Source: a virus
Lineage: Duplodnaviria > Heunggongvirae > Uroviricota > Caudoviricetes
Direction: 5' to 3' (one strand)
IMG/VR virus record: IMGVR_UViG_2913147268_000005
Length of the DNA stretch: 64,000 nt
Of the stretch, positions 27,001 through 30,000 are shown piece by piece; positions within the stretch are counted from its first letter, which is position 1; the number at the start of each line of letters is the position of its first letter. The position numbers are program-made.

Positions 27001-30000
27001 ATTGAACAGCGCCATCAGCGGGTCAATTTTTCCCCGTCCACTGGCCTGTTTGGTGATAAGAATGGCGTTACCTTTAGGCTCCACCCGGGCATTGCCGACA
27101 CACCAGGCCATCAGGGGCTGGTCACCATGCACCAGCACCCCTTCAGCCAGTTTGCGCTCGGTGGTTTTAATGGCCCCGCCCAGTTTCCAGCCCTGGCTTA
27201 TCCCCACCACAATTCCGTCGGGGATCCCGGCTTCCGCCAGTGAATCCAGAATCTGCCCCACCCCTGACGGGTCAATACCGATATGGTCCAGTAACTCAGC
27301 CTCATGAATGCGACGCACATATTCCGCCACTTCCGCCGTGTCATCCCCGACACGCCGGACAATGGTCATATCTCCACAGGCAACAAGATCCTGAAACCGG
27401 GACGCCTCGCTCTTCCGTCGGACCACCGCGGTTTCATGCGCCCAGGCATGGCCCCAGCCCAGCCATTCGCGGGTCTCCCGGTCACGCCCAATCACATACA
27501 TCCCCAGCAGATCATCCAGCCCTCCGCCGTCAATCCCCACCGTCACCACATCAGCACGACGCAGGATATCGTCCAGGCTGATACAACGGCCCTGCTCTTC
27601 CCAGAAATCAGCCCCCGCCCAGCGGTCAGAGCGCAGGGCAAGACCAATTTCCACATTGGCGTGTTTTGACATGAACCCCCGGAATGTCTCTTCACCGGCT
27701 TCCCGGGCTTTACGGTACTCCCGGTACAGAAAGGCCTCATCCACTGAATAGCCGAGATTCGGATTGACCATGGCGAGGTTTTCCATCAGCAGGTTAGTCC
27801 CGCTTTCCACCATTTCAGGAGGGTGTTCAAATATCACCGGCAGAAAGTGCGGATCATGAATTTTGCCGTCGCGCACATCCCGGGCGTACTGCAGTTTCTG
27901 TCTGAACACCCCGGCGGGCGGTTCATTCGACTGGGTGGTCGTATACACCACAAACCCTTCCGGGCGGGAGGCAAGGCCGCCTATGGCTTCACGTAACATG
28001 TCCTCCGCCTTGCACTGCTTGCCAAACAGCCACAACTCATCAATCAGCGTACCCACGGACTTGATACCGGACACCGTATTCGGATCGGCTGCCACCACCT
28101 TCAGGGTGGTGTCCGTCACTCGGTGGGTGATGGTCCGGATATGGGTCTGTACCTGGCAGAGGTCATCCAGATCATCGTCACGTCGTACCATATCCCGGGC
28201 AGGGTTGAAGGCGTTGGCCGCCACCTCCACAGTCGGGGCCAGAATCGTGTAACCCGCCGCCTGCCGCCAGTTCAGTAACAGTGCAGTCATCATGATCCCC
28301 GCGGCCAGCGTGGACTTCGAGTTTTTCTTGGGGATAAGGATAAAAACTTCCTTGATATGGCGTACACCGGTCTGCGCATCGTAGGAGCCAAACAGGGCCG
28401 CCACCAGGTCAAACACCCACGGTGCACAGGACTCCCCGAACGTAGGGCTACCAGGTGCATCCACAATCCGCAGTTGTTTAAAAATCGCCAGGGCATGTGC
28501 GGCCTCGTCCGGATAAATCGGATCCGGAATAATCGACAGCCCCTTTTTCAGGCGCTCTGCCCAGTCCGGGCAGGCTGTGCTCCATACAGGTATCATCCGT
28601 TGCCCTCATTATCGTTATTCACCACCAGTCGGGGGGGCGGTGGCACCGCAAAACGGTTAGCCGCTTTTTTCGCGGCATCACCTTTTGCCGATTTTTTCCC
28701 GGTATCCCCTTTTTTATGGTGCGTGAACTGCGCCAGACGCCAGGCCGCATCCAGTGCCAGTTTCGGATCAATGCAGAGGTTTTCCACCAGGATCCGCCCC
28801 ATGGCTTTCACCGGATCGGGAAGACCATCCTCCATATATTCAATACCAGGAGACATCACCGCGGACGGTGGCATCTCCAGATTGTTTTCGTCCGGCTGTG
28901 GTATTGCAGCCGCCTCACGGCGACGGGGTTTATCCTCCTGCTCTGATTTTTTCTGCCGGTAAACAGGAACCTCATCCACCTCCACCGTCTCGCATTGTTT
29001 ACGGGCTATAAACGCAAGCACCTCAGGATCTTTTGCCAGCTGCGAGCCTTTAACCCTGGCGGTCTTCGCCGAATAACCGGCGGCAATGGCTGACGCTGTT
29101 TTGTTTTTCCCGGACATGAGCGCCAGCGCAAATTTTCGTTTTTGCGTTGTCAGCACAGCCTCCTCCCGGGTCCAGAACGCACTCAGCCGGGTATGGTTCA
29201 GCCCATTTTTCCCGGCGTCTCATGCCGCAAATGTTAACTGCTGCCTGGTTAACATTTGCTGAAAAAGCCTGTTAACATTTTTTCCGCACAACAAACTGAA
29301 TAATAAAGATAAAAACCGCAAAAATGCCCGGGCAGCCAGTTAACATGTTAACTGCCCTGAAACGGGAATTTTTTCTCTGCGTGAGAGGGGGCGCGGTGTC
29401 CAAAGCGATCGTTTTTTACGCCGGATGATACCCCCCCCGGGTTGGGTTACAGTCCGATGATGTCGTCCTCTCTGCCACTACCTCCGGACACCTCCGGCAG
29501 CGTCGGGTCCGGCATACCACTCGCCGCTTCACGAGCAGACTTTTGTCGATGGCATTCGGCACAGAGCGTCCAAAGATTCGTCTCCTCATTACCACCACCG
29601 AACTGAAGTGCAATTCGGTGATCGAGTTCACTGTCACAGAGGTCAACCACACGACCACAGATACAGCACTGCCCGGCGTCCCTCAGCCAGATATGACGCT
29701 TGAGGGAAACACGTGCACTGCCACTGACACGACGCTGCTCCCCCTTCAGAATATTCACCCGTCGGGTATTCAGTGTTTTGATTCTGCTCTGGAGTGTACG
29801 AAGCTCAGCCATGTAAAATCCCCGTCATATGGCAATCAGTAAAGGAAATAAATATGTCATCGAAAAACCGGACCCGCAGAACCACAACCCGCAATATCCG
29901 TTTCCCCAATCACATAATTGAACAGATCAACATCGCCCTTGAGCATAAAGGGTCCGGTAACTTTTCAGCGTGGGTTATTGAAGCCTGCAGGAGAAGGCTG

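Follow-up and report, generated by a model that had tools for sequence, protein, structure and literature searches.

The packaging module of the virus record IMGVR_UViG_2913147268_000005 was analyzed within a stretch of 64,000 nucleotides (the window, in whose coordinates all positions are given), with a focus on a cluster of GTTAAC repeats beside the small terminase gene. The locus is an Escherichia coli prophage in which open reading frame (ORF) calls and Pfam matches place all packaging genes on the minus strand, namely those for an HNH endonuclease, the small terminase TerS, and the large terminase TerL (Table 1). The HNH ORF, annotated as an HNH endonuclease in identical E. coli records, is the final late-operon gene ahead of the cohesive end site (cos), and the 290-bp gap between it and terS, 29157-29446, is the sole sizeable non-coding stretch among the three genes. 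The original prediction, whose coordinates coincide exactly with this gap, had described five GTTAAC hexamers within 120 bp and in two repeated contexts, lying between HNH and terS in the only sizeable gap of the packaging module, and all of this was borne out by the sequence, the ORFs, and the Pfam matches.

The hexamers start at 29233, 29248, 29271, 29339, and 29347, so that five copies fall inside 120 bp (29233-29352). The entire window contains 20 copies, and the 15 beyond the cluster correspond to a rate of ∼2.3e-4 per base, or ∼0.03 expected per 120 bp; thus, the cluster is not a product of chance (Poisson probability of at least five copies, ∼1e-10 per 120-bp stretch and at most ∼1e-5 allowing for every window position). 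The repeated contexts are ATGTTAACTGC, present twice, and AGCC(T/A)GTTAACAT, also present twice; GCAAATGTTAAC and GTTAACATTTGC form a perfect 12-bp inverted repeat, and CAGTTAACATGTTAACTG is a perfect 18-bp palindrome. The copies were designated sites a1, a2, b, c1, and c2. Site c2 is inverted with respect to c1, with 9 bp separating the 12-bp arms, and the array as a whole spans +33 to +155 from the nick proposed below, with the orientations split three versus two. Within the window lineage alone, ∼14 of 229 columns are variable and none of these falls in a hexamer, a result too weak to count (P ∼0.14 by our own estimate). A 24-codon ORF on the minus strand (29272-29346, MLTGCPGIFAVFIFIIQFVVRKKC) opens at the ATG central to the a1/a2 palindrome, has no ribosome-binding site, and is probably a relic. 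A second close pair elsewhere in the window, GTTAACTGGTTAAC at 58700-58713 upstream of an ORF, differs in spacer and context and was rejected as having no link to cos.

The position of the cut was taken from a close relative, phage Lys8385Vzw, which was assigned by PhageTerm to the cos class with a 10-nt 3′ cohesive end, CGCCCCCCCT (PMC7946995), and whose terS is 95% identical to that of the window. Its record, MT225100, opens inside the homologous HNH-terS gap: it ends in ...GGACACCGCCCCCCCT (at greater length, ...GATCGCTCCGGACACCGCCCCCCCT), 59 nt past the HNH-type gene, and starts with CTCACGCAGAG... (at greater length, CTCACGCAGAGAAAAAATTCCCGTTTCAGGGCAGTTAACATGTTAACTGG...), with the homologue of the window terS start ∼230 nt further on. 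The corresponding minus-strand sequence in the window is GGACACCGCGCCCCCT CTCACGCAGAG (or, extended, GGACACCGCGCCCCCT CTCACGCAGAGAAAAAATTCCCGTTTCAGGGCAGTTAACATGTTAAC), a single base off Lys8385Vzw, and 37 of the 38 core positions are identical; because the window matches the MT225100 ends but for that one base, the homologous 10-nt end is placed at 29386-29395. The core block, which spans the Lys8385Vzw genome ends, is near-invariant in six aligned E. coli cos regions, the exceptions being a C/T position at +5 and three variable columns at the 3′ end. Further upstream, a run of at least seven G residues is kept at the position of the poly-G box in nearly all relatives; in the satellite described below, the conserved part of the cos cassette likewise opens with this box, which is possibly cosQ-like.

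The first repeat lies 33 nt in from the left genome end, on the terS side of cosN. Judged by homology, then, the GTTAAC array is distinct from the cut site and sits where lambda has cosB. The original prediction of a candidate cos in the gap agrees with the Lys8385Vzw ends, but the cut falls in a separate G+C-rich segment rather than in the repeats. Three other sources of end evidence were rejected: the record of phage phi330 (PV189401) is split inside terS, and cos is not mentioned in the phi330 paper; gp1 of Burkholderia phage phiE125, the genome ends of which have reportedly been mapped, is a different TerS without a similar cos block; and the records of Burkholderia vB_ phages do not begin at a consistent distance from terS. 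Upstream of cosN, most relatives carry GTAAACAT (GTTAAC in L015) within GTAAACATCGATCG, at about -34 (L006-L022), where the window lineage has GTAAAAAACGATCG (29411-29420); the upstream GTAAACAT may be a terminase site across the nick that was lost in the window lineage.

Table 1. Features of the cos region and packaging genes (window coordinates; "." indicates no assigned strand).
Feature	Position	Strand	Remarks
Large terminase gene terL	26935..28596	-	ATPase and nuclease domains; PF03354 and PF20441
Small terminase gene terS	28593..29156	-	PF03592, E=1.3e-8, 36 bits (cut-off 26.1); GTG start
TerS N-terminal helix-turn-helix DNA-binding domain (predicted)	residues 1-56		Predicted recognition helix, residues 30-41, AKTARVKGSQLA
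terS leader	29157..29228	-	Ribosome-binding site GGGAGGAGG (29159-29167); poorly conserved
Site c2	29229..29238	+	AAATGTTAAC on plus strand; class II, GTAAACAT
Site c1	29248..29257	-	AAATGTTAAC on minus strand; class II, ATGTTTAC
Site b	29271..29280	-	AAATGTTAAC on minus strand; invariant in class I including the satellite; class II, ATGTTTAT
Spacer	29282..29336	-	T tracts ∼10 bp apart; ATTCA-N5-GTTG (29289-29301)
Sites a1 (29345-29352) and a2 (29339-29346)	29337..29354	.	Palindrome CAGTTAACATGTTAACTG, beginning 33 nt past the nick; invariant within each class; class II, ATAAACATGTTTAT
Conserved cos core	29364..29401	-	GGACACCGCGCCCCCT|CTCACGCAGAGAAAAAATTCCC; A6 tract at 29369-29374
cosN, predicted 10-nt 3′ cohesive end	29386..29395	.	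CGCGCCCCCT (minus strand); homology to Lys8385Vzw
Poly-G box	29431..29440	-	CCGGGGGGGG (minus strand), just past the HNH stop codon; upstream edge of conserved cassette
HNH endonuclease gene	29447..29812	-	121-aa ORF; PF01844, E=2.7e-7, over the cut-off

Comparison of the six E. coli cos regions resolved two classes of site. All five sites read ATGTTAAC in class I, comprising the window, the prophage CUPS_TF, and the satellite in E. coli CH427, and ATGTTTA(C/T) in class II, comprising STEC1587, 2012C-4221, and A34. The site offsets are common to both classes (+33, +39, +106/107, +130/131, and +147/148) despite divergence of the spacers; in either class taken on its own, all 38 site columns are invariant, versus 59-60 of 100 spacer columns (Fisher p ∼1e-7). 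The exceptions within the long spacer are ATTCA and GTTG, invariant in the six-way alignment amid variable surroundings, and the spacer is a possible bend or weak site for integration host factor (IHF). No match to the IHF consensus WATCAANNNNTTR with at most one mismatch was present in the gap; ATTCA-N5-GTTG itself has two mismatches. The leader, which the satellite lacks, differs at nearly all positions among class I, class II, and the diverged class I prophage CUPS_TF.

The TerS proteins change with the sites. Five residues in the N-terminal domain are diagnostic of class II in all three of its members (K19R, A25E, A30E, T32S, and V35C), and in an AlphaFold model they map to the predicted helix 2, turn, and recognition helix. 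PF03592 (Terminase_2) is the sole Pfam match of TerS, and profile matches to the small terminases of SF6, PaP3, and NV1 are weak. The model has predicted local distance difference test (pLDDT) values of 85-91 over residues 1-50, and its helices are predicted at residues 4-14, 19-25, 30-41, and 44-56, the last extending into a block averaging 64. The best Foldseek match of the model is the DNA-binding domain of SF6 G1P (4zc3; target TM-score 0.84, root-mean-square deviation 1.6 Å). On the Pfam, profile, and structural matches, TerS is an SF6/SPP1-type protein with an N-terminal helix-turn-helix (HTH) and is not HK97-like. The pairing extends to other enteric relatives: across all distinct N-terminal sequences compared, Ser32 invariably accompanies a non-coding half-site that reads (G/A)TAAAC, and Thr32 invariably accompanies GTTAAC (L067, L071, L020, L021, and the window lineage).

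To place the array in a wider family, 99 related loci (19 species genomes and 80 contigs from IMG/VR, where 190 relatives were found) were collected with a TerS alignment. Among the sequences analyzed, 76, with hosts in Enterobacterales and beyond, had a core GGACACCGCGCCCCCT|CTCACGCACAGAAAAAATTCCC on which they could be anchored. GTTAA-type motifs follow cosN in the 76 anchored relatives and in the window. An unbiased k-mer count returned GTTAA/TTAAC as the top 5-mer after cosN, present in 16 of 16 non-redundant segments (<75% identical; 1.8 expected, same loci) and in at least two copies in 12 of them. In most enteric relatives (terS 40-49% identical), the terS ATG lies exactly 39 nt past the nick, within GT(A/T)AAC-ATG-TTAAC-A. 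At that offset, a perfect GTTAAC-AT-GTTAAC is present in the window, and the palindrome is thus interpreted as the ancestral terS start region; the terS start of the window lineage now lies 190 bp further downstream, with three more sites intervening. Distant relatives whose TerS starts M-A-L-T have GTTAA(C/A) between +32 and +36, and their codons 3-4 contain TTAAC; lineages with longer gaps have their own GTTAA-like repeats (GTTAACCC twice in L021, AAAAGTTACAC twice in L040, AGTTAAA three times in L094, and five or six copies in L102). Of 77 distinct terS genes, 61 use TTA for the conserved N-terminal Leu, a codon that accounts for 5% of the remaining Leu positions in those genes; among loci of at least 58% G+C, 20 of 21 use TTA there. 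Lineages with a CTG or CTA codon instead (the window, L020, and L021; start (A/G)TG-CT(G/A)-AC) carry upstream GTTAAC copies. Together, the TTA bias and these upstream copies imply that the motif is constrained as DNA, independently of coding.

The third class I member is not a phage of this type. E. coli CH427 (L108, NZ_CM166357) carries a ∼9-kb integrative element (∼7770-16175) beside clpS/yljB that matches only positions 29229-29402 of the window, at 80% identity and at the edge of the element. The genes of this element encode an integrase, an HTH regulator, YlcI-like, Icd-like, and DUF4222 proteins, a RepA/AAA_25 helicase, and a protease-capsid fusion unrelated to the window capsid protein; no terS, terL, or HNH gene was found among them. 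It was considered a phage satellite because it has integrase, helicase, and capsid genes but lacks all three of these packaging genes, and it looks like a satellite of Pankowvirus-type phages. The element retains the core block and all five GTTAAC at the window positions, with different spacers, and the similarity stops a few bases past site c2. Relative to a sister element (L112), the cassette is a ∼230-bp insertion at CCGGAAAAAAA|TTCCGG, located at 7960-8230 and extending from the poly-G box to ∼15 nt beyond site c2. A helper-dependent satellite should keep just what the terminase needs, and this one retains cosN and the whole array. Twenty-two complete E. coli genomes carry the cos-proximal 1.4 kb (the cassette plus a small neighboring ORF) at ≥99% identity. 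Three related elements (L110, L111, and L112, in E. coli DLL557, Ec-2977, and DETEC-E1005), two at the clpS site and one elsewhere, are without the class I cos and encode a terS or terL of their own; in L111, terS is accompanied by an SfV/e14-like cos sequence, CTGCCCGCCCC. This distribution suggests that cos and packaging modules are swapped as cassettes among these satellites.

Given these comparisons, the cos of a lambdoid siphophage belonging to the BP-4795/2851/1717 group (Pankowvirus) probably occupies the gap 29157-29446, with cosN at 29386-29395 and the five sites serving as recognition sites for the TerS HTH, equivalent to cosB. The support is comparative and consists of the end position in the relative, conservation, co-variation with TerS, and carriage by the satellite. 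TerL and HNH would nick the G+C-rich core in a stagger, leaving the 10-nt 3′ overhang by homology with the mapped relative, and the N-terminal HTH domains of TerS would bind the five AAATGTTAAC-type sites (29229-29354), positioning TerL and HNH on cosN as lambda cosB does for its terminase. A bent spacer, whether intrinsically so or through a factor (T tracts, ATTCA-N5-GTTG), may bring a1/a2 near b, c1, and c2, and packaging would run from cosN through the array to terS and terL, that is, toward falling window coordinates. The ancestral state would have been a single GTAAAC-ATG-TTAAC over a terS start 39 nt past the nick, from which the window lineage shifted its terS start downstream and gained four sites. 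TerS as the binder is inferred from the same comparisons, and the bending of the DNA and the contributions of individual sites are proposals. The terminase-binding part of the original prediction fits this assignment insofar as the repeats are most likely TerS sites by co-variation and satellite carriage; however, the array occupies the position of cosB and not that of the cos cut.

Several observations weigh against this assignment. The center-to-center spacings of the sites (8, 68, 23, and 15 bp) follow no simple helical register. The end mapping comes from one PhageTerm report, and the overhang in the relative concerned is one base different. The AlphaFold model was built from a single sequence and is reliable only for approximately the first 50-56 residues of TerS. 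The related loci share ancestry, so the counts above are not independent events, and, the lineages being related, only about three independent Thr/Ser32 switches can be argued. The class I to class II changes also keep the inverted repeats, as a hairpin would predict. Finally, an invariant A-tract block at +11 to +22 lies near the region bound by the TerS of HK97 (+15 to +29) and could be a further, or even the main, TerS site; a conserved component of the machinery may recognize this block, but the block does not account for the difference between the classes.

Binding of the sites by another protein, whether TerL, HNH, the adjoining DUF3950/YlcI product, or a host factor, is unlikely. HNH and TerL do need to act nearby, and a YlcI/YnfO-family gene adjoins HNH in both classes and is annotated in the satellite too. 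However, an identical YlcI protein (WP_000095744.1) occurs in one class I and one class II prophage, and a host factor gives no account of two classes in one host species. A class-diagnostic residue was looked for in the HNH nuclease domain and none was found; position 115, in the C-terminal tail, is the sole HNH residue that splits the classes (E in class I; A or P in class II), whereas the five class II-diagnostic changes of TerS all fall in its HTH region.

Still less probable is a structural role in which the inverted repeats form hairpins in late-transcript RNA, or cruciforms in the DNA, and tune terS translation or transcription instead of serving as protein-binding sites. The a1/a2 and c1/c2 repeats are perfect, the change from class I to class II leaves both palindromic as compensatory changes would, and the gap, folded as RNA, is slightly more stable than shuffled sequences (z = -1.97; 7 of 200 shuffles at least as stable). 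Yet site b, which has no nearby partner, changes together with the other sites; the direct repeats of L021, L040, and L094 are unable to pair; and the satellite keeps the array although terS is not downstream. The a1/a2 stem is, moreover, A/U-rich with a loop of 0-2 nt, and a hairpin gives no account of a TerS recognition helix that tracks the site class. A scan of the gap detected no terminator-like site, and no Rfam family matched the gap at up to E=1.

That the extra copies are functionless relics of a duplicated terS 5′ end (ATG-TTA-AC) or accidental promoter-like sequence is very improbable: the motif does equal the ancestral terS start and first two codons, and two copies do make up a weak sigma-70-like match (9/12), but two copies are inverted, the five sites are invariant across spacers 20-40% diverged (satellite included) and all changed in concert in class II, and the promoter-like match lies on the plus strand, antisense to the late operon, with two such matches in a 1.2-kb scan being near chance (0.8 expected).

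Beyond TerS recognition itself, we advance only tentatively, as less likely to be right than wrong, a broader proposal in which the array and the TerS recognition helix form a switchable packaging-specificity code. Thr32 would pair with a TTAA core and Ser32 with a TTTA core, so that co-resident prophages package their own DNA only; satellites would pirate the code through the ∼230-bp cassette, and class switching would reflect a phage-satellite arms race.

The region is widespread. Long-tailed Shiga toxin (Stx) phages and related E. coli phages (BP-4795, 2851, 1717, YYZ-2008, and phi330, the record of which, PV189401, is assigned to the genus Pankowvirus) match it at 94-100% identity; prophages of several human isolates, including the sequence type 131 (ST131) strain EC958, are 100% identical to it; and it was found at 3090 places in the E. 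coli collection, in 1288 of 5426 complete genomes, often in several copies and in up to eight copies per genome. No feature was annotated in the gap in the records of related phages that were inspected. Among the neighboring genes, prohead protease (Peptidase_S78) and HK97-type major capsid domains are fused in one 645-aa ORF (24934-26871, minus strand) that directly follows terL, with no portal gene in between. A DUF3950 (YlcI/YnfO family) ORF (29854-30054, plus strand; PF13132, E=3e-19) is divergent from the adjoining HNH gene, and a gene of this family is annotated beside HNH in the related prophages inspected and is also present in the satellite. Two further regions, at ∼31.5-32.06 kb and ∼33.2-33.5 kb, contain runs of N (X in translations) that break up ORFs beside the lysis genes (31517-32062) and an ORF at 33121-33762, probably because the assembly was masked or unresolved there.

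The element is ordinary in kind but was previously unmapped in this Shiga-toxin-type phage family: a full-text literature search (the motif with terminase and cos; cosB in HNH phages) gave no description of the array, and the 10-nt cos sequence (PMC7946995) was the one published datum located for this group of phages. What is specific here is the pairing of Thr/Ser32 with TTAA/TTTA, together with the satellite cos cassette. The same packaging module is also found in many long-tailed Stx1/Stx2 phages, and a known cos core with probable TerS sites allows correct linearization and annotation of these phage genomes, helps to predict which terminase packages which prophages and satellites, and gives a foothold for studying how Stx phages and cos-borrowing satellites are transferred. 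How small terminases read DNA is still debated (PMC11331095), and five residues versus one base per site, five times over, constitute a small natural system for DNA reading by small terminases of the HTH type.

Among known systems, the layout most resembles that of lambda cos (cosQ-cosN-cosB, with R3, I1, R2, and R1 bound by gpNu1 and IHF), in which the nick is likewise followed by motif copies in both orientations. The repeats extend over ∼120 bp on the terS-proximal side in both, with an A/T-rich spacer, and the terS start lies at a similar distance, about 200 bp, from the nick (229 bp in the window versus ∼190 bp in lambda). The two differ in that the overhang is a 10-nt 3′ end in the window family (predicted for the window itself) versus a 12-nt 5′ end in lambda, the window machinery includes an HNH protein, the TerS belongs to Pfam Terminase_2 (SF6-type HTH) and not to the gpNu1 family, and no match to the IHF consensus with at most one mismatch was found in the gap. 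The window motif is also not known to be related in sequence to the lambda R sites. The proposed pairing of each TerS class with its own repeats resembles that in lambda versus phage 21 or N15, a topic treated in one report (PMC4669245).

With HK97, which the original prediction had taken as its model, the window family shares the order HNH, cos, terS, terL and the 10-nt 3′ overhang (mapped in Lys8385Vzw), and in HK97 the HNH protein (gp74) stimulates cos cleavage (PMC11331095). The likeness does not hold for TerS: that of HK97 has no well-defined DNA-binding domain, threads DNA through a central channel, and has one 15-bp A-tract site at +15 to +29 (PMC11331095), near which the window has its own A tract (+11 to +22), whereas the window TerS has a confidently predicted HTH of the SF6/SPP1 type and the element that co-varies with it is the five sites at +33 to +155. 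The best structural and sequence match to its N-terminus is G1P of SF6/SPP1 (4zc3, 2cmp, and 3zqq). G1P binds repeated boxes in bent DNA. SPP1 and SF6, however, use headful (pac) packaging without an HNH partner, whereas the close relative of the window has cos with defined 3′ cohesive ends. The CH427 element has its counterparts in P4 and the cos-type Staphylococcus aureus pathogenicity islands (SaPIs; SaPIbov5, with HNH-dependent helpers), a strategy of carrying the helper cos that is summarized in the preprint on capsid-forming phage-inducible chromosomal islands (cf-PICIs); CH427 likewise carries a helper-type cos and no terminase genes, but it differs from P4 and the SaPIs in belonging to another element family (encoding an integrase, a helicase of the RepA type, an Icd-like protein, and a protease-capsid fusion of its own) with another presumed helper group. 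On the sequence comparisons made here, the window is a lambda-like layout of cosN and cosB set in an HK97-like, HNH-dependent module, with a predicted 3′ overhang and an SF6-type TerS.

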